A DNA stretch of 64,000 bases from Escherichia phage vB_EcoM_G2285, in sequence record MK327933.1, one strand, 5' to 3'. The translations under genes were made by a program, and so were the position numbers. Positions 29,902 to 64,000 of this stretch are shown one piece after another; within the stretch, counting starts at the first letter, position 1, and every line of letters begins with the position of its first letter. Below the pieces are notes generated by a model. It saw nothing but the letters and a program-made list of their open reading frames with translations, was not told the origin of the DNA and made no database searches.

Positions 29902-30905
29902 TCAAAAATCGAACATATCGAACAGAGATGCTTTCTTCTCGTAATCGAGTTTCGCTGCTGATGTGAATCCTTCAAGTGGTTTAATAAATGTCTTCTCAAG
30001 GAGAACAGTGTAGTCCATCCAATGAAGTACATCGTCTTTAATTAAATCTGTGATTTCAGTACCAGAAGGCCATGCGATACATTTATCACCGAATGGGTTT
30101 CCTTCACGTAAAGGCAGAACATATACTTTTTCACCTTCTACAACTTGCGGTGCATCGATATTACCTTTGATAGCCCGGTTATACGTCAGAATTCCACGAA
30201 TATGGAACGGGCATTTAGGACCAGGGAATCCACCGACGTCATATTTAGCAATGTTATTCGCAGAAGATACCGACGCGATGCTAATATAATTCAATTGACG
30301 GAATTCTTTTTCAAACTCTTTAAAATATTCTTGTAATGATTCTTCGCCTTCCTGAAGCATACGACGAATACATTCCTTAAGAGCTTTCTGTACTGCTTTA
30401 GGAGTCGAAGATTTCTGAGTCTCTAGACCCATGATTTTAAGCTTAGGTTCAGCGTATCTGGTTCCTTCCATATCCCACACGTTTAATGCATAACGTTTCT
30501 TACCAGTCCAGAATCCACCAATACCTTTAGAACCAAGCGGAGGACCAGCAATAGCTTCTCGGTCCATGAACATCAAATGTTGTTTATTGTTCATGTATTC
30601 ACACATTTCACGGAAACCTCTATCAATAGCTGGTTCCATACGTTCACGTGCAAACTTATCTAAGAAGTCTACCCAATGGTTGGTATCACGGAATTTAGAT
30701 TCACCAACCTTATCAATAATTTTATCTGCAGATACGTAAATGGAGTCTGTATCACCATAAAGAACGAAAGCTTCACCTTCTGTACCACAAACTTCATTCA
30801 GATATTCATTAACTTTACGTTCAATCCACTGTAAAGCCATTTGACCAAATGTTGTGATTGCAGTAGCATTACGCAAATCGTAATAACGGAACCAAACGTT
30901 ACCCA
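29902..30905 (-). CDS. 43: DNA polymerase gp43, cistron B exon 2 (palm/thumb, YGDTDS)
   Basis: translation from GNVWFRYYDLRNATAIT through YGDTDS to ..FDMFDF matches recalled RB69/T4 gp43 C-terminus; 5' boundary set at inferred splice site. Confidence 0.85.
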
Positions 30906-31137
30906 CATTATGTTCGACTGAGGTCGTTAATCTCAGCCCGGAATTATATCCAGCTGCATGTCGCCATGCAGAGCAGACTATATCATCATCTTTATAGATG
31001 CTATGCGCTTCCACCCACTTGGGCGTACTCCTTTCGGATAGTCGTTGCACGTTCCTCATAGAGGCTTCGCTCAGGATTGTCTACTAGAGATGTCCCCTGA
31101 ATTCACATAGTTTAAAGTGCGCCGAGTTATTTGGTTA
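30906..31137 (-). ncRNA. group I intron (td/nrdD-like, ORF-less, 232 nt) in gene 43
   Basis: interrupts motif B codons (..LYGAL | GNVWF..); core elements CTCTAGTAGACAATCC and GATATAGTCTGCTCTGCATGGCGACATGCAGC; starts TAA after exon U, ends ..CATAATG. Confidence 0.75.
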
Positions 31138-31306
31138 ACGCACCATACAGACTATTAATAAGCAATTTACGGTTAATCTGAGCCGTATTACCTGCTACTT
31201 CAGCCAATTCGCAGTTTTTAAGATGTTGTTCTAAATCAGCTTTGCTTAAGGACTTGAGATAAGAAATTTCATCTTGTGAAAAGTCTTGAGTGTATGTTAA
31301 ATTCAT
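31138..31306 (-). CDS. 43: DNA polymerase gp43, cistron B exon 1 (motif B)
   Basis: ATG overlapping HEG stop (TAATG); encodes MNLTYTQDF..NTAQINRKLLINSLYGA, the polymerase K-x3-NSxYG region. Confidence 0.7.
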
Positions 31307-32127
31307 TATATTTTATTCCTACAGTTATCAAAGTGCCAACGTTTCATACCAGATAATATACCTTCTTTACCACAGTGCGGACACGTTGCTTTAATCTCTT
31401 TAGCTTTAGCCCAGTATTCTTTCTTAGAGTCTGAAAGGGCCTTATTATGGGCTTCCGAATTGGTTTTGCCTAATCTTGTTTTAACTATATTAGGATTCTC
31501 TGAAATTCTTTGCTTCATCCTAGAAGACTGTTTAGAACGTTGTTCTTTCGACCAGCCATCAGATAAAACTTTCTTTTGTTCTTCAGTTTTGGTTGTACCG
31601 AAGAGATGGGATTTATTTTTAGAATAGTATTCTTTGAGACCTATAGATTGTTTTAACGAAGTTTCAGCAGAATGCTTTGTTCCTATTTTATTTTTACTTG
31701 CTACAGCCCAATTGGCTGCTGCTATGGCTTTATACTTTTCAGGATTTTTGGCTATAGTGATTTTAATAGAATCTGAAACCTTTTTAGCAATCTCTTGGGA
31801 CTTCATAGGATTTGGTAGATTTAAAGAATTTACATAATCCCAACCGCCTTTACCACCAGGATTAAGATTATATGTATCATTTCTTTTTACAAAATCTTTA
31901 TCTACAATTTTAGCTTCAAGGGCATAAGCTTCATCTTCATTATCGAATACTTCCAAAATGGTCTTTTGGAGATTTTCTATACCGTATTTTTCAACGGCTG
32001 CTTTAACAACAGGTCCAGAACCGCGGTAAATATCGTTTTGATTAGACTCATCACACTTATGAACACCTACATAAATTTTACCATTAACGACATTAGTAAT
32101 TTGGTAAACAGTATAAACAGTTTTCAT
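31306..32127 (-). CDS. GIY-YIG homing endonuclease inserted within gene 43
   Basis: VYQITNVVNGKIYVGV GIY-YIG motif; C-terminal CPHCG..MKRWHFDNC zinc finger; start set at ATG with SD GGAGG. Confidence 0.75.
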   Translation of the reverse strand: MKTVYTVYQITNVVNGKIYVGVHKCDESNQNDIYRGSGPVVKAAVEKYGIENLQKTILEVFDNEDEAYALEAKIVDKDFVKRNDTYNLNPGGKGGWDYVNSLNLPNPMKSQEIAKKVSDSIKITIAKNPEKYKAIAAANWAVASKNKIGTKHSAETSLKQSIGLKEYYSKNKSHLFGTTKTEEQKKVLSDGWSKEQRSKQSSRMKQRISENPNIVKTRLGKTNSEAHNKALSDSKKEYWAKAKEIKATCPHCGKEGILSGMKRWHFDNCRNKI

Positions 32128-32153
32128 AATATCCTCCATTAGTTGATAAGACT

Positions 32154-32183
32154 ATAATACCACATCCTTGTGGTATTGTAAAC
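32154..32183 (-). promoter_or_regulatory. early-type promoter for the intragenic endonuclease
   Basis: minus GTTTAC-N18-TATTAT then AGTCTTATCAACTAATGGAGGATATTATG. Confidence 0.45.
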
Positions 32184-33703
32184 TATTTTGAAGCCAAAAT
32201 CTCTTTAATTATTTCAGCATTTCGCTGTGCAGCCAACATGTAGCGCTTATGTTCTTTACGCTGCAAGAATACCTTAGTGATTTCTGTTGGAATCACACCA
32301 TCACGGTCTTTATAATACATCATGCCGTTAGGAGAGCAACTGTACACATCTGAAGGACGTTCGGCGATTGCGTTAATATACTCATGCAGTGGAGCTACTT
32401 TAAACGTTCCTGCTATTGTTTCCGGGCTAATATTCACTTGGCGAATAATACTTGGATACAGAGATGTAAGGTCGAAACTCATTACATATTTGTATCGATT
32501 TGGAATAGGTTCCTTAACAAAAGCGCCAGGATAAGGTTGAACCGGGTGAGAACGACCTTGTGGAATCACCTTGTTCTGCTCTTTAAGGCTATTAAAAATA
32601 ATAGCATCCCATGTTTTAATTGGGCTAAACACAGATTGAATCTGTATCTTAGCATAATAACCCATGTCCAAGCTCAAGTTGATGAACTGACGCTTAGCAT
32701 CAATTTGCAATACACGATACACGTCGATAATGTTATAAGAAATATATCGTTGGTGATTGCTTTCACGAAGCTTAGAAATAGGGCCGTCATATTTCAGTTT
32801 ACCAACGTTCAATTCAAATTCTGAAATGTAATCCAGAGAATATGACGGTTGATTGGTAAAAGAGAATTTTTTGTAAAGGTCAATGTAATCAAGAACAGAG
32901 ATACCGAACAATGTAATGATTTCACGAGAACCATACATGTTTTCGATAACTTTAACACGAGTTTTACGATGTGGTGACAACCGTTTTGCTGTGGATTCGC
33001 CAAAAATATTCTTGATTCGGTTATACACATATGGAATATCAAATGACTCAACGTTCCATCCAGTCAAAATGACAGGAGTTTTCTGTTGCCAGAAGTTGAG
33101 ATATTCCATCAACAATTCTTTTTCGTTATCGAACGGCATATAAATGATTTTATCGATAATTTCAGATGGAACTTCATCACCGCCTTGTTCTTGAAGCTTA
33201 GCAGCGATTTCAATAGACCATTCTTCTACATTACCATACGGAGAATTCAATAGATCAAATACATAGAACCTGTCGTCAATTGAGTCATAATGGGTGATAG
33301 CATCAATCGGATGTTTTGCTTGTGACGGCTCAGGGAACCCATCCGGAGATGTTACTTCGATGTCGAAGTTAGCCACACGAATTTTTGTATGGTCGTATTT
33401 GATTTCATAGTTATAAGTGTCAGACAAATACGCCAATTTGAAATCGTCCATGCCAAGTGCTTCAAGTCCGATATCTTCCATGCGTTTAATCCATTGGGAG
33501 GCATCACGCATATTAGCGAACAGCTTACGAGTACACGGCTTACCGTAGATATCGAAATATTTCGTAGCCTGACTTTCTGGACAATGAGCAAACAGTGATG
33601 GTTTATATTCTACTTCACGAGTACGTTCACGGCCATTAGAATCGATGTAACGTTCAAAAATTGAATCACCAATCTGTTCAACCGTTAAGTAAAATTCTTT
33701 CAT
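32183..33703 (-). CDS. 43: DNA polymerase gp43, cistron A (N-terminal and 3'-5' exonuclease domains, motif A)
   Basis: 506 aa; MKEFYLTVEQIGDSIFERYID..FDIEV..YNIIDV..DLTSLYPSII matches recalled RB69 gp43 N-terminal half; ends at in-frame stop. Confidence 0.9.
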   Translation of the reverse strand: MKEFYLTVEQIGDSIFERYIDSNGRERTREVEYKPSLFAHCPESQATKYFDIYGKPCTRKLFANMRDASQWIKRMEDIGLEALGMDDFKLAYLSDTYNYEIKYDHTKIRVANFDIEVTSPDGFPEPSQAKHPIDAITHYDSIDDRFYVFDLLNSPYGNVEEWSIEIAAKLQEQGGDEVPSEIIDKIIYMPFDNEKELLMEYLNFWQQKTPVILTGWNVESFDIPYVYNRIKNIFGESTAKRLSPHRKTRVKVIENMYGSREIITLFGISVLDYIDLYKKFSFTNQPSYSLDYISEFELNVGKLKYDGPISKLRESNHQRYISYNIIDVYRVLQIDAKRQFINLSLDMGYYAKIQIQSVFSPIKTWDAIIFNSLKEQNKVIPQGRSHPVQPYPGAFVKEPIPNRYKYVMSFDLTSLYPSIIRQVNISPETIAGTFKVAPLHEYINAIAERPSDVYSCSPNGMMYYKDRDGVIPTEITKVFLQRKEHKRYMLAAQRNAEIIKEILASK

Positions 33704-45947: not shown

Positions 45948-46418
45948 TTAATCATGTTTCCACACCCCATTGGTATTTAACCAAAGTCGCTGATTATCTG
46001 ATCCTCGCCACAGCTTTTTAGTCGGAAGATTTTTCTCATACTTCCCATCAATAATAACATCAACATATTTAAGCATTTCTAGCTGTTTAATATCTTCAAA
46101 CTTATATCCTGTCCACAACCAAATGCTTTTATTGGGATAAAGATTTTTTACTGTTTGAACAATGCAATGAATAACATCTCGGTTATCAGGATAGAGAGGG
46201 TCACCTCCGGTTATAGTCAATCCTTCTATATAATCATTATTCAAACATTCAATTAATTGTTCTAGTGTTTCACCAGTGAATGGAATACCATTTCTAGCAT
46301 TCCATGTTGATTTATTATAACACCCTTCACATTTATGCAAACAACCTGTAACGAAAAGAACGACCCTGCAACCAGGGCCATTCACAAAATCGCAAGGATA
46401 AAATCTATCATAATTCAT
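45948..46418 (-). CDS. nrdG: anaerobic ribonucleotide reductase activating protein (radical SAM)
   Basis: 156 aa; C-x3-C-x2-C motif TGCLHKCEGCYN. Confidence 0.88.
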   Translation of the reverse strand: MNYDRFYPCDFVNGPGCRVVLFVTGCLHKCEGCYNKSTWNARNGIPFTGETLEQLIECLNNDYIEGLTITGGDPLYPDNRDVIHCIVQTVKNLYPNKSIWLWTGYKFEDIKQLEMLKYVDVIIDGKYEKNLPTKKLWRGSDNQRLWLNTNGVWKHD

Positions 46419-47694
46419 TGGTGTTTAACCCTATGCATTATTTCTTTATTTTTACCGAGATTAAATCCGCGTTCGTTCGGATTTCCCAAATAACCGCATG
46501 TTCTTCTTATGGTGTTCATCTTTTTAGGATCAGTTTCTCCGCAAACTGAACAAACAAATCCGTTTTCAGTAGGAGTCATTTCATGGGTACTTCCGCATGT
46601 AAAACATTTATCTACTGGCATATTAACACCAAAATAATCTAAATGTTGTGCAGCATAATCCCATACGGCCTCAAGACCTTTTAAGTTATTTTTCATATCA
46701 GGAAGTTCAACATAAGAAATGTGGCCACCTGTCGCAATGAAATGATATGGTGCTTCACGAGAAATCTTTTCAAACGGAGTAATATTTTCTTCTACTGAAA
46801 CATGGAAACTATTAGTGTACCAGCCTTTATCAGTGACATCCTTTACACTTCCATATTTTTCTGTATCAAGTTTACAGAAGCGATAACAAAGGTTTTCAGC
46901 AGGAGTCGAATATAAACTAAAAGCAAACCCAGTTCTTTCAGTCCACTGTTTAAGATGAGCATTCATTTTAGTTAAAATTTCCTGTCCAATATCACGACCG
47001 ACAAGAATATTCAATTCATGAATACCAATGTATCCTAGGGACACTGAACTTCTACCGTTTTTAAATAACTCAATTATGTCGTCATCAGGTTTAAGACGAA
47101 CCCCGAATGCACCTTCTTGGTAAAGAATAGGAGCAACAGTCGCTTTAACTCCTTTTAAGGAACTAATTCTACACATCAAAGCTTCAAAACACAAATCCAT
47201 TCGTTCATTGAATAATTCAACAAATTTCTGTTCATTGAACTGTGTTCCAATATAAGAATCTAACGCGATGCGAGGAAGATTCAATGTTACAACACCAAGA
47301 TTATTACGTCCATCAAGAATTTCATTACCAGTCGAATCTTTCCATACGCTCAAGAAACTACGGCAGCCCATTGGAGAAACTGGAACTGAAGAACCGGTAA
47401 TAGCTTTATTATTCTTAACCGAAATAATGTCAGGATACATTCTTTTGCTTGCACATTCTAACGCAAGTTGTTTAATATCATAGTTCGGATCATCTTTATA
47501 AAGATTAACACCTTCTTCAACAAACATAACAAGCTTAGGGAAAATAGGAGTTATCCCATCACGACCAAGACCTTTAATCCGATTTTTCAGAATTGCTTTC
47601 TGAATCATTCGTTCAGTCCAGTCAGTTCCAGTACCAAATGTAATTGTTACAAAAGGCGTTTGTCCATTTGAACTGAAAAGTGTATTTACTTCAT
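46415..47694 (-). CDS. nrdD: anaerobic ribonucleotide reductase NrdD, exon 2
   Basis: glycyl radical motif RRTCGYLG and C-terminal zinc ribbon; 5' boundary at inferred 3' splice site so the join reads ..AYE-YEVNTLF.. Confidence 0.85.
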
Positions 47695-47720
47695 CATTAT
47701 ATTCAGCATGAGTCGCAAAT

Positions 47721-48491
47721 TCATGCTCGTTTATATGAAACAACAAAATTTGGATAGTCCATAGATATGCAACGTTCTTTTATAGTGCTAGGATGAAAAT
47801 TTAGCGCTTTAGCTGCTTCTATATAAGACGTATACTTAATACCGTCAACAACCACATATTCAGGAACTTTATGAATAGTAGTCTTAATACTCAAAACAAG
47901 AGGATGAGTTTCGACTTCACTTTCAGTGCAATTTAAATATTCCGCTGCTTTTTTAAAACTTCTAAAAGTTTTATTTTTAAGCTTTATCGATACTTGTTTT
48001 TTACTTTTTCGACTATTGATATTATTTTGCACATGTTCCTTAGATCTTCCGTTTTTAGCATAATATTCAGCTACAGAAGATTTTATATTGTTTTTATGAG
48101 ATTCGGATAACACTTTACCCTTATGAGCATCTCTTAATTTTTGAATATGTTCTTCAGTATCCGGATGCTTATAAAACTTTTTACCGCCTATGGATTTATT
48201 TAAACATTTTTTGCTATAAAAATATTTACGTATGACCTCTTCTTCATGTTTTAATGCATCTTTATAACTATCAAATGTTTTTAAAATTATCCATTTAGTA
48301 GGTGTATCAGTTTTTAAGCGTTCATTTATATACTTAGATGACGTTGTGTAAGTTTTCCAGTTTGTGGGCTTGTTTTTAATTGTTCTAAATTTTTTATAAC
48401 CGATATAAATGTCGCCATTAGAAAACTTAACTAAGTATGTAAATGCGTCTTTATCTTTTATTTTAGTACAACGTCTTTTTATCCATTTCAT
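47721..48491 (-). CDS. intron-encoded GIY-YIG homing endonuclease (I-TevII-like)
   Basis: 256 aa; YLVKFSNGDIYIGYKK GIY-YIG motif; lies in 3' part of the nrdD intron. Confidence 0.8.
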   Translation of the reverse strand: MKWIKRRCTKIKDKDAFTYLVKFSNGDIYIGYKKFRTIKNKPTNWKTYTTSSKYINERLKTDTPTKWIILKTFDSYKDALKHEEEVIRKYFYSKKCLNKSIGGKKFYKHPDTEEHIQKLRDAHKGKVLSESHKNNIKSSVAEYYAKNGRSKEHVQNNINSRKSKKQVSIKLKNKTFRSFKKAAEYLNCTESEVETHPLVLSIKTTIHKVPEYVVVDGIKYTSYIEAAKALNFHPSTIKERCISMDYPNFVVSYKRA

Positions 48492-48520
48492 TGTTTCACC
48501 TCGTATTCATAAGATAATCT

Positions 48521-48528
48521 TATTTATA
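48521..48528 (-). promoter_or_regulatory. T4-type late promoter TATAAATA inside intron
   Basis: about 30 nt upstream of endonuclease start, followed by SD GAGGTG. Confidence 0.5.
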
Positions 48529-48739
48529 CAAGATGACTGCTGCATGTCGCCATGCAGATTAGACTATATCTTCATCTTTCGATGCCGGCCGTTTCGAATA
48601 GCATTAGCTTCTATTCTACACCGCTACATTCATCACGGTTAGTCGTTAGGCATTTAGTTCAAAAGAACATTTAGCACGGGATTGTCTACTAGAGAGGTTC
48701 CCCGTTTAGACCGGTTTTACATGAGCCTGAATTAAATTA

Positions 48740-49277
48740 ACTCATACGCCTGGAATGCATCGTATACGTCTTTTTCTGTTTTAGATTGAGCATAATTCAA
48801 CGCATCAGCGATTTGCCATTTTTCTGCATCTTCAATATGTTTAGCATATGTGCGTTTAACATAAGGAGAAAGTACTTTATCTACATTCGCAAATGTAGTT
48901 CCGCCATACTGGTGTGAAGCAACTTGCGCGGTAATTTGTGCCATAATTGCAGTAGCAACACCGATTGATTTAGGAGTTTCAATCTGTGCATTACCTAGCT
49001 TAAATCCGTTTTCAAGCATTCCTTTTAAATCTACTAAACAACAATTAGTAAATGGAAGAGCAGGGGAATAATCAATATCGTGCACGTGAATAATTCCGCT
49101 TTCATGCGCTTTCATAATAAAAGACGGGACTATATTTTTGGCAATGTGTTTAGACACAATACCAGCCATAAGGTCCCGTTGAGTTGGAAAAACACGAGAA
49201 TCTTTATTAGCATTCTCGTTTAAAAGGTCTTTATTAGTTTTATGAATCAATCCTTCAATTTCTTTTTCAATTGTCAT
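48740..49277 (-). CDS. nrdD: anaerobic ribonucleotide reductase NrdD, exon 1
   Basis: MTIEKEIEGLIHKTNKDLL.. matches recalled T4 NrdD N-terminus; exon1+exon2 = 605 codons. Confidence 0.85.
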
Positions 49278-62290: not shown

Positions 62291-62319
62291 ATAGTAACAC
62301 AACTAGAGGAGAAGTAAAC
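62291..62319 (-). promoter_or_regulatory. early-type promoter embedded in 12-bp-arm palindrome (arms 62271-62282 / 62300-62311)
   Basis: minus GTTTAC-N17-TACTAT; downstream arm CAACTAGAGGAG contains the SD. Confidence 0.55.
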
Positions 62320-62323
62320 TACT

Positions 62324-62581
62324 TTATTGATAAAATGGAGTTAAAGCCCAAGATTCTTTAGATACCATATTGGCGAAATGCCTCATCTCTTCGATTTGGC
62401 GACGACGCTGGTCAGCATAGTCTTCTTCGCCTTCTTCCTTACAATCTTCAAGGTCTTCTTCAAGATACTTTAAGTATTCACTACAAATTTTGTTGACCTT
62501 TTCTTGAAAGTCCAATAACCCAGTAATAGTAGAAGCCATTAGTATTTTTCCTCGGGTCGAAATACCGCACGACATGCCCAC
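62324..62581 (-). CDS. hypothetical small protein
   Basis: 85 aa ORF. Confidence 0.4.
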   Translation of the reverse strand: MGMSCGISTRGKILMASTITGLLDFQEKVNKICSEYLKYLEEDLEDCKEEGEEDYADQRRRQIEEMRHFANMVSKESWALTPFYQ

Positions 62582-62973
62582 ATGCTGGCTTCTTTTAGAT
62601 GTTGCTTAGCATACTTAAGAGCCTGCACTGCATCCATATCTTCTTTGGTTTGTTGCTCTGTTTCATTTTCTTTCAAGATATATGCTTCTTCAATCAGAGC
62701 ATCAAACAACAATCCAAGACGGACTTCAGCATCTTTAATAGCGTTCACTTTACCGATTTTATCATCGGTATGCGGCTTGTAGCCTTTGATGTCTTCAATC
62801 GACATAAGGAATTTCCTCATCTGTGGCAAGGTCATATTCGACCAATTGGATAGGCTCATTAATACCATATCCACGTACAGTGATATCAGTTGTCGGATAG
62901 TTTCCAGTAATATCACCCGTTCTAAATGCTTCAATGAATGATTGCTCGCCTGAGCAACTAAACCAGGCGGCAA
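62539..62973 (-). CDS. hypothetical protein (true start probably internal)
   Basis: 144 aa track ORF overlaps neighbours at both ends. Confidence 0.35.
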   Translation of the reverse strand: MPPGLVAQASNHSLKHLERVILLETIRQLISLYVDMVLMSLSNWSNMTLPQMRKFLMSIEDIKGYKPHTDDKIGKVNAIKDAEVRLGLLFDALIEEAYILKENETEQQTKEDMDAVQALKYAKQHLKEASMWACRAVFRPEEKY

Positions 62974-63019
62974 AACATTTTAAAACATCTTCAGACCCTT
63001 CTATAATCAATTTAGCCAT
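62795..63019 (-). CDS. hypothetical small protein
   Basis: 74 aa ORF. Confidence 0.4.
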   Translation of the reverse strand: MAKLIIEGSEDVLKCFAAWFSCSGEQSFIEAFRTGDITGNYPTTDITVRGYGINEPIQLVEYDLATDEEIPYVD

Positions 63020-63381
63020 TATAGACTTTCAGTAAAGGTACGAGCGATAACGTCGCGCTGCTGTTCCGGAGTCAGAGAGTTAAAGCGAACTGCATAACCA
63101 GATACACGGATGGTCAGCTGCGGATATTTTTCCGGATGCTTAACTGCATCTTCCAGAGTTTCACGACGCAGAACGTTAACGTTCAGATGTTGACCACCTT
63201 CAATTTTAACTTTAGGTTGATGTTCAATTTCAATTTCACGGGCATTCAAACCGTAGAAAATTTCCGGGTCTACAATAGCGTCTTCTTTAAAAGTCTTAGA
63301 GACAATAATCCGGGCTTGAGTACCGTCTTCAAAATAAATAGTGCCTTTATGTGCACCTTCAAGAATTTGATATGCTTTCAT
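63019..63381 (-). CDS. GrcA/YfiD-like autonomous glycyl radical cofactor
   Basis: 120 aa; C-terminal [60 protein letters not shown] with RVSGY glycyl-radical motif. Confidence 0.7.
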
Positions 63382-63387
63382 ATAACC

Positions 63388-63696
63388 TCAATTAGAAAAT
63401 AAATTTATCCAAGTTTTTTCTTTAATCAAAAATGGGTCGGAATTAAACGCCATTAAACTTTGAGTGATTAATCCCTTAAATGGCCCATCAATAAATTCCA
63501 TTTTGAAATGCGGAATACTAGTCATCAACCGTGCATTAGGAGCAGTACAAAGAACCTGCTGCCCTGCGAACGGACCTTTAGTCAAACGATATCGTTTAGG
63601 TTTAAAATGGTAAATCTCATAATTTTCTACAAGAGCCCTTTTATTGCATACTGGGCTGTTATAACAATACTCAAAAACTTCAATAGTGGTCATCAT
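63388..63696 (-). CDS. hypothetical protein
   Basis: start set at ATG overlapping upstream stop. Confidence 0.4.
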   Translation of the reverse strand: MMTTIEVFEYCYNSPVCNKRALVENYEIYHFKPKRYRLTKGPFAGQQVLCTAPNARLMTSIPHFKMEFIDGPFKGLITQSLMAFNSDPFLIKEKTWINLFSN

Positions 63697-64000
63697 TGCA
63701 TTCCAATCACAAAAAATTGAGGACGAGCAATACCGCCGATGCAATATTTGCTTTTGCAGCAGTGCTGTACTGATTTAATATGGACATTGTAAATCTTATC
63801 CATATCAGGAGCTTTAATAGGCTCGTCAATTATATACAGAATACGAGAAAGCGTTAATCCACGGAATTTAGAACCTTCATTGCCAATAAAACTACGAACA
63901 GAATCAGTAAATAAACGGAATCGAATATCATCGCTAGAATAACGAGAAAATTCTTTTTTAATGTTGCCAACAGAAATTTTAGCATAAGCTGAAGTATTAG
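63693..64000 (-). CDS. hypothetical protein, partial (N-terminus beyond window end)
   Basis: open frame running to the window edge, ending ..FFVIGMQ at TGA 63693-63695. Confidence 0.4.
   Translation of the reverse strand, partial: NTSAYAKISVGNIKKEFSRYSSDDIRFRLFTDSVRSFIGNEGSKFRGLTLSRILYIIDEPIKAPDMDKIYNVHIKSVQHCCKSKYCIGGIARPQFFVIGMQ

Follow-up and report, generated by a model that had tools for sequence, protein, structure and literature searches.

The vs.6 homolog of Escherichia phage vB_EcoM_G2285: a mosaic GrcA-like gene with a probably host-derived 3' half

How a strictly lytic phage that destroys the chromosome of its host can still carry a patch of about 180 nucleotides (nt) with 98-100% identity to a gene of that host, and what the product of the patched gene would do during infection, are the questions raised by the vs.6 homolog of Escherichia phage vB_EcoM_G2285 (sequence record MK327933.1). 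The gene encodes a small GrcA-like protein and was analyzed here as part of a stretch of 64,000 nt, referred to as the window. Taking the evidence together, we assign a probability of roughly 85% to the joint reading that vs.6 encodes a phage GrcA-type spare part for the host pyruvate formate-lyase (PFL) PflB, that the gene is a mosaic, and that its C-terminal tract has been overwritten by host grcA more than once. As to its basis, the sequence features, the breakpoint and the discordance of the tract with its flanks were established in this analysis, the in vitro function comes from work on the ortholog of phage T4, and we infer the recombination mechanism, the role in infection and the link to formate.

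Identity of the 3' half to Escherichia coli grcA

The original prediction, made from the sequence alone, held that the last 60 residues of the protein match GrcA, that the N-terminal half is different and that the 3' end of the gene is host-derived. Global alignment with E. coli GrcA (WP_000627804) showed residues 61-120 to be identical to GrcA 68-127 at 60 of 60 positions, and the N-terminal half aligned weakly both there and in HMMER comparisons, in which residues 21-60 aligned to GrcA 27-67 with about one third of the positions identical (ARxIVxK, F.ED, RE). The first 20 residues did not align to GrcA, and homology to the disordered residues 1-60 of YfiD, as GrcA is also named, is a weak match. 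At the nucleotide level, the BLASTN search proposed with the prediction bore out the host-derived 3' end, as 97.8% identity over 183 nt was found to grcA of all 5,426 complete E. coli genomes compared. Specifically, 179 of the 183 nt at gene nt 181-363 are identical, leaving four differences in the last 61 codons, and the whole gene as blastn query likewise matched grcA in every one of these genomes (91.3% over gene nt 133-363). The four differences (gene nt 195, 282, 357 and 360) are all synonymous, and at each of them the host has C or G and the phage T or A. Identical codons amount to 56 of 60, as compared to 25.0 expected from the codon usage of the window itself (Poisson-binomial P = 1.7e-21), and an exact match of 152 nt (window positions 63026-63177) was found with grcA of Escherichia sp. 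MOD1-EC7003. The maximum chi-square breakpoint lies after gene nt 178 (chi-square 67.5, exceeded in 0 of 5,000 permutations), and at the other end similarity to the E. coli locus stops directly after the stop codon. Megablast of the remainder of the window (1-63018 and 63382-64000) against the E. coli genomes gave no match, and hence the result that had been named beforehand as speaking against the prediction, namely host identity no higher than for other phage genes, was not what was observed.

Base composition and codon usage had also been suggested for comparison. The content of guanine plus cytosine (GC) discriminated well, being 0.47 in the tract and 0.368 in the window, which places the tract in the top 0.4% of 183-nt windows; over gene nt 1-132 it is 0.37, like in the rest of the phage. 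Codon usage proved a poor discriminator, and the test was uninformative because, among all 60-codon windows of the phage open reading frames (ORFs), the tract ranks at the 19th percentile. This percentile, together with the fact that codons of E. coli grcA largely end in A or T and fit phage usage, is what could be expected if no recent exchange had occurred and an old phage gene had acquired a host-like 3' half through extreme purifying selection and shared codon preferences, and the near invariance of the C-terminal 60 residues across very different phages and hosts would fit as well. Nevertheless, we find this explanation hardly credible. Constraint on the protein alone is insufficient, because in Citrobacter phage Maroon and three loci from IMG/VR the C-terminal 60 residues are the same, yet the underlying DNA is only 83-85% identical to that of E. 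coli grcA, at a synonymous divergence (dS) of about 1.4, and hosts with identical residues differ from one another at dS 0.36-1.4. The number of identical codons and the exact run shared with an Escherichia allele speak against it too. In coliphage RB49 and in T5-like coliphages, nt identity to E. coli grcA is 72-76%.

The dS of the tract to E. coli was 0.09 for vB_EcoM_G2285 and 0.05 for T4, and the E. coli tract differs from that of other hosts by 0.36 (Citrobacter), about 1.0 (Salmonella) and 1.4 (Yersinia). Moreover, between hosts the two parts of grcA, N- and C-terminal, have diverged to a similar dS. The 3' end of E. coli grcA thus takes an ordinary place in the host tree, which indicates transfer from host to phage, and transfer from phage to host was rejected on the same ground. 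An assembly artefact was rejected as well, since the mosaic is common to hundreds of independently sequenced phage genomes including that of T4. Identity to the host above that of other lineages and of the rest of the genome, a sharp breakpoint, phylogenetic conflict of the tract with its flanks and a base composition like that of the host, as expected for a host-derived tract, were all found, and they support the conclusion that the tract was probably copied from host grcA by homologous recombination.

Some database records deserve separate mention. In a small number of E. coli records, the match to the phage gene is on plasmids (6 places), and the identity of five records is in the 95-99% band; T4-like phage DNA deposited in E. 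coli assemblies may be the source of these matches. Among contigs classified as 'viral' in IMG/VR, eleven include some with a host-type grcA that is Yersinia-like and has the complete host N-terminus, or with large pieces of pflB, which may represent host DNA in viral bins or transduced fragments.

Recurrence of the tract in coliphages and Jiaodavirus

A recent acquisition, as had been proposed, applies to the tract; it does not apply to the whole gene, which is an old and widespread phage gene. Nor is the event private to vB_EcoM_G2285, since E. coli grcA is matched at 90% or more by about 630 of the 1,510 phage records with a match to it: the last ~185 nt match at 95-99.5% in 486 of them, and a further 146 match a longer stretch of grcA at 90-95%. 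The listed records of the 90-95% group are all coliphages, including close relatives of the phage studied here, and the records at or above 90% come largely from Escherichia and Shigella phages, with Tequatrovirus and Mosigvirus among those listed.

The ortholog in T4, Vs.6 or Y06I (NP_049730), likewise consists of 120 amino acids, lies between vs.7 and vs.5 and shows the same mosaic, its tract having 98.4% identity to the E. coli gene over 183 nt. Both proteins share 112 of 120 residues (93%), and seven of the eight substitutions lie in the N-terminal half, the eighth being residue 73, which is R in vB_EcoM_G2285 and the host and H in T4. Alignment of ~2.1 kb around vs.6 between the window and T4 gave nt identities of 70% for the vs.7 flank, 89% for the N-terminal part of the gene (N-part), 98.3% for the tract, 71% for the last 7 nt and 69% for the vs.5 flank; the flanking genes are only about 70% identical to those of T4 because vB_EcoM_G2285 belongs to a different genus, Mosigvirus. 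Synonymous differences between the window and T4 were counted at 11.5 of 37 sites in the N-part and at 2 of 44 sites in the tract (Fisher p = 0.001). Additionally, a contig of Mosigvirus type (L096) and one of Tequatrovirus type (L098) are both identical to E. coli grcA at 175 of 175 positions (nt 179-353), although synonymous differences are present between their N-parts at 13 of 37 sites (p = 9.5e-6). Tract identity within Mosigvirus equals that between the genera (98.3% in both cases). Because the flanks are about 70% and the tract 98.3% identical between the genera, the tract is younger than the split of Mosigvirus and Tequatrovirus and thus than the phage genera in which it is found.

These data bear on whether the tract could stem from a single capture by the ancestor shared by Tequatrovirus and Mosigvirus, with nothing but vertical descent thereafter. 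Such a capture would be in line with the presence of an E. coli-type tract with the same 5' junction in all sampled members of both genera and with the T at nt 357 that is common to 8 of 9 phages sampled across them. Yet the N-part dS of 0.40 predicts ~18 synonymous substitutions when the tract of the window is compared with that of T4, and 2 were seen (P(<=2) = 4e-6); moreover, members of both genera are fully identical to E. coli over 175 nt, and variation of the tract within a genus is the same as between genera. Vertical descent would require slowly evolving synonymous sites in the tract, and the dS of 0.4-1.4 between hosts in the very same tract argues otherwise. We therefore consider a single capture very improbable.

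Further relatives were found among phages of other hosts. In six Jiaodavirus genomes (phages of Klebsiella and Raoultella and 'Salmonella' phages) the N-parts are 96-99% identical, and the tracts of the same genomes share 89-98% nt identity, though they encode the same protein. Jiaodavirus 15882-3 has an exact run of 131 nt (gene nt 181-311) and Jiaodavirus PSE-D1 one of 104 nt (gene nt 181-284) in common with the full-length host-type grcA of the metagenome contigs L176 and L177; the tracts of both phages have 96-96.6% identity to these contigs, as compared to 87-89% to E. coli. In L176 and L177, ung is located upstream of grcA, as in bacterial chromosomes, and their grcA is closest to that of Klebsiella sp. 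(91% nt and 98% amino acid identity). The exact runs of 104-131 nt were seen only after metagenome host contigs and more Jiaodavirus genomes had been added to the comparison; for Klebsiella phage Roth21, comparison with species-representative genomes gave an ambiguous 89%, which became 89.6% with the metagenome hosts included. The Jiaodavirus proteins also have the two residues of Klebsiella type (LLDAVEH as compared to LEDAVKH), and their 5' junction is that of the coliphages, at codon 60/61. Because Jiaodavirus carries a Klebsiella-type tract, at least one further independent host-to-phage event is implied, and from these alignments the Jiaodavirus tract would be one that evolves by replacement rather than by point mutation.

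For the coliphages themselves, an alternative is that one recent conversion by the host took place in a single coliphage lineage and that the tract then spread across Tequatrovirus and Mosigvirus by recombination between phages in co-infection. T-even phages recombine freely and the adjoining N-part, conserved at 89%, could support exchange, while the informative sites are too few to separate the two routes. On the other hand, since the last 7 nt and the flanks are genus-specific, exchange between phages would have to be confined each time to the same ~175-nt island; the 3' end of the tract differs among close relatives (nt 284, 311, 353, 356 or the stop codon); and the Klebsiella-type tract of Jiaodavirus demands at least one more event from a host in any case. 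We regard spread between phages after one conversion as a possible but rather unlikely explanation. The conclusion that the radical domain was overwritten repeatedly by grcA of the current host is well supported by the sequence comparisons, with the type of the patch changing with host genus. The more far-reaching proposal that the 3' half of vs.6 in T-even-type phages may be a standing hot spot of gene conversion, repeatedly overwritten from codon 60/61 onwards by grcA of the current host, which would be of Escherichia type in Tequatrovirus and Mosigvirus and of Klebsiella type in Jiaodavirus, has in our estimate slightly better than an even chance of being correct. If so, the tract would constitute a natural record of recent host genus and a direct, measurable read-out of recombination between a lytic phage that degrades host DNA and the host chromosome.

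Regarding the mechanism, we propose that the N-terminal half is an old sequence of the phage lineage and that the C-terminal 61 codons would be overwritten by gene conversion with grcA of the infected Escherichia host. Conversion would start where usable homology starts, i.e., at codon 60/61 near the beginning of the structured domain, and would end at or just before the stop codon. The heteroduplex tracts would run up to a heterology barrier at the divergent N-part, which fits the breakpoints observed: the 5' junction lies at codon 60/61 and the 3' end varies (nt 284, 311, ~344, 353, 356 or the stop codon). T4 is able to recombine in vivo with homologous cytosine-containing plasmid DNA, as seen with insertion/substitution vectors.

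A putative spare part for cleaved PflB

That the GrcA-like module could repair oxygen-damaged PflB, as had been proposed, is in accordance with the in vitro result for the T4 ortholog: after activation by the PFL activating enzyme (PFL-AE), Y06I restores activity to oxygen-cleaved PFL, as YfiD does (Wagner et al. 2001, pmid 11444864, as cited in PMC8683613), and no spare parts other than these two have been validated (PMC8683613). Residues 61-127 of YfiD/GrcA duplicate PFL 693-759, and the disordered residues 1-60 are required for binding of cleaved PFL and for efficient installation of the radical (PMC8683613). In the phage protein, residues 61-120 correspond to nearly the whole structured domain 61-127 of E. 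coli GrcA/YfiD (P68066; nuclear magnetic resonance structure 6OWR), and the N-terminal half is 7 residues shorter than that of the host protein and weakly similar to it. A phmmer search of the PDB returned GrcA 6OWR as best match (2e-42), followed by PFL 1H16 at residues 696-759 (3e-26). The protein thus combines a PFL-type loop, RVSGYAV, with a C-terminal domain that matches PFL 696-759 and GrcA 61-127, and is a small stand-alone glycyl-radical domain without catalytic barrel; both are features of the GrcA/YfiD proteins of about 14 kDa (TIGR04365, IPR011140). The C-terminal domain of PflB (1H16, 696-759) shares the fold element and the RVSGYAV loop; in contrast to PflB, where the counterpart segments read MNREMLLDAMEN and QQQDVITRTFTQSM, the phage sequence is of GrcA type and lacks the barrel. 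The protein is best filed as a member of a phage Vs.6 subfamily of GrcA-like proteins.

As for the N-part, comparison with T4 (89% nt identity) gave a dS of 0.39-0.40, a nonsynonymous divergence (dN) of about 0.05 and a dN/dS of about 0.13, which points to purifying selection. Its motif, ending in AR.IVSK, recurs in T4-like, T5-like and jumbo phages, and these features suggest that the N-part may be a phage-specific version of the docking and activation function.

A different target is conceivable, in that NrdD, the anaerobic ribonucleotide reductase (RNR) of the phage itself, might be the enzyme that the protein repairs, after activation by NrdG, rather than host PflB. The prediction had noted that the phage encodes NrdD and its activase, and both were indeed found by Pfam matches, ~15 kb away in the same window; furthermore, an early comparative paper proposed a role in nucleotide metabolism from a Pfam match alone (PMC1524935). 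However, the domain matches that of GrcA throughout, radical loop included, and is closest to PFL 696-759, and the loop RVSGYAV of vs.6 is not of the RNR type RxCGYLG, whereas that of NrdD in the window, RRTCGYLG, is of the class III type. The PFL activase accepts the RVSGYAV loop and rejects the class III RNR loop RVCGYLG (review PMC13450708), and complementation of cleaved PFL by T4 Y06I, as described in PMC8683613, likewise speaks for PFL. A role as NrdD spare part seems very doubtful to us. Because the loop is RVSGYAV with Gly95, as compared to RRTCGYLG in NrdD, the vs.6 protein is predicted to serve host PflB, and not NrdD, as an autonomous spare part that PflA of the host activates.

Following this, we propose that oxygen would cleave host PflB at its radical glycine and that the phage protein of 120 amino acids would supply a replacement C-terminal glycyl-radical domain. 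Once the host activase PflA had introduced the radical at Gly95 of the RVSGYAV loop, the protein and cleaved PflB would together form an active complex again, and production of acetyl-CoA and formate could go on in micro-aerobic infection. The hydrogen donor of the E. coli class III RNR is described as formate by Mulliez (1995). The phage NrdD may be a possible consumer of PFL-derived formate, and PFL kept alive in this manner might provide energy and reductant for the synthesis of deoxynucleoside triphosphates.

Several points weigh against the joint reading. The codon usage of the tract is no outlier for the phage, and informative sites are few, with 0-3 differences per phage, which is why independent host conversions in the coliphages are inseparable from one conversion that spread between genera. 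The donor contigs L175-L178 are of Klebsiella type by sequence similarity, with an unconfirmed species label. No exact host run longer than 35 nt was detected in Slopekvirus (phiKp_26) and Pseudotevenvirus (Maroon), so that conversion is not universal, and ENT3 has at most 82.5% identity to any host grcA. On the NCBIfam equivalog model for GrcA, the protein scored 159.1 bits (residues 18-120 aligned) and remained narrowly below the cut-off of 170 because of its divergent N-terminal half; E. coli GrcA scored 233.9 bits on the same model. Finally, the function of the vB_EcoM_G2285 protein is extrapolated from in vitro work on T4 Y06I, and a search of the literature for an in vivo test of benefit during infection found none.

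Homologs of different appearance were also seen. In a Providencia phage (L090, 282-683), a T5-like phage (L091, 320-688) and locus L126, the C-terminal domain of the spare part is PflB-like (MNREMLLxAMExP...QQRDVISRTFTEAM) and not GrcA-like; in these, the module may be drawn from pflB, or tuned to pflB, in hosts of other families. In three IMG/VR contigs, the vs.6 homologs stop early, after 49 or 33 amino acids, and may be pseudogenes or result from sequencing frameshifts.

Locus, earlier knowledge and neighbouring genes

The features of the locus and of the NrdD/NrdG genes are given in Table 1. Gly_radical is the sole Pfam domain of the protein (residues 60-101, E 2e-18), and PHROG 1209 covers it over its full length (residues 1-120, E 9.1e-63). 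The gene order vs.8-vs.7-vs.6-vs.5-vs.4-regB is as in T4, which is characteristic of the T4 Vs.6 group (PHROG 1209); matches to PHROG 2049, 1986 and 717 together with Pfam matches to RegB and Acb2 identified the neighbours as homologs of vs.7, vs.5, vs.4 and regB. Positions 62300-64000 share 98-99% nt identity with Escherichia phage JM10 and numerous further phages of Mosigvirus, where the vs.6 ORF is annotated as 'autonomous glycyl radical cofactor'; the window is part of a T4-like genome of the genus Mosigvirus. The genes around vs.6 are tightly packed, and a scan of 62300-64000 for promoters and terminators revealed no excess of sites (4 as compared to 4.8 expected from shuffled sequence).

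Table 1. Features of the vs.6 locus and the anaerobic ribonucleotide reductase genes in the window
Feature	Position	Strand	Basis
Coding sequence, 120 amino acids, phage-type autonomous glycyl radical cofactor (GrcA-like), T4 vs.6/Y06I ortholog	63019..63381	-	ORF list, ATG start
Ribosome-binding site GAGG	63386-63389	-	4 nt 5' of ATG; overlaps stop codon of upstream vs.7 homolog; read from sequence
Phage-lineage N-terminal half, gene nt 1-178, codons 1-59	63204..63381	-	T4 comparison, GC, motif
Host-derived tract (probable), gene nt 179-363, residues 61-120 = GrcA 68-127, structured glycyl-radical domain	63019..63203	-	E. coli grcA comparison
Glycyl-radical loop RVSGYAV, residues 92-98	63088..63108	-	Motif location; radical Gly95 codon 63097-63099
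nrdG, radical-SAM activase of anaerobic ribonucleotide reductase	45948..46418	-	Pfam Fer4_12 2.3e-48 and Radical_SAM
nrdD, two pieces (48732-49277 and 46415-47746)	46415..49277	-	Pfam NRDD profile positions 1-141 and 145-562, and Gly_radical

The gene and its function are already known, as this is the Mosigvirus copy of T4 Y06I. The nt-level identity, its recurrence and the matching to host genus were not found described in the literature searched, an earlier mention in Wagner 2001 or in a T4 genome review being possible, and the recurrent, host-matching conversion appears to be undescribed. A related case is that of cyanophage psbA and psbD, which have reportedly undergone intragenic recombination between host and phage (Zeidner et al. 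2005; Sullivan et al. 2006): there, too, a metabolic gene of a lytic phage swaps internal segments with the host copy, giving mosaic genes. In contrast to the cyanophage genes, the case described here concerns an enterobacterial host and a T-even-type phage, the patch of ~175-185 nt reaches 100% identity, the junction is fixed about seven codons inside the structured domain, and the patch matches the host genus.

From a practical point of view, vs.6 is a convenient natural marker of homologous recombination from host to phage, and in T-even phages it may serve to indicate recent host history. At the same time, polymerase chain reaction (PCR) or read-mapping markers placed in the tract part of a 'phage grcA' could cross-react with E. 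coli DNA, and the tract can seed chimeric assemblies or false calls of host contamination. In a 2026 paper, grcA was chosen as conserved marker gene for quantitative PCR of Straboviridae coliphages (PMC12845203); if the primers sit in the host-identical tract, E. coli DNA would be amplified.

Some further observations were made on other genes of the window. The vs.4 homolog, two genes downstream of vs.6 (62539-62805, minus strand), contains an Acb2/Tad1 hairpin domain (Pfam, 1.4e-17), which is that of a family of sponges for cyclic nucleotides directed against the cyclic-oligonucleotide-based antiphage signalling system (CBASS). The two pieces of nrdD are separated by an ORF for a SegE-like GIY-YIG endonuclease (47721-48491), and the split looks like an interruption by an intron or homing endonuclease such as T4 nrdD is known to have. 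Gene 43, for the family B DNA polymerase (29902-33703, minus strand), also appears split, with the exonuclease domain and the beginning of the polymerase domain on one piece (32183-33703) and a fragment of the polymerase on the other (29902-31059), and between them lies an ORF (31306-32139) with a weak SegE-like GIY-YIG match of 23.7 bits, just under the Pfam cut-off.

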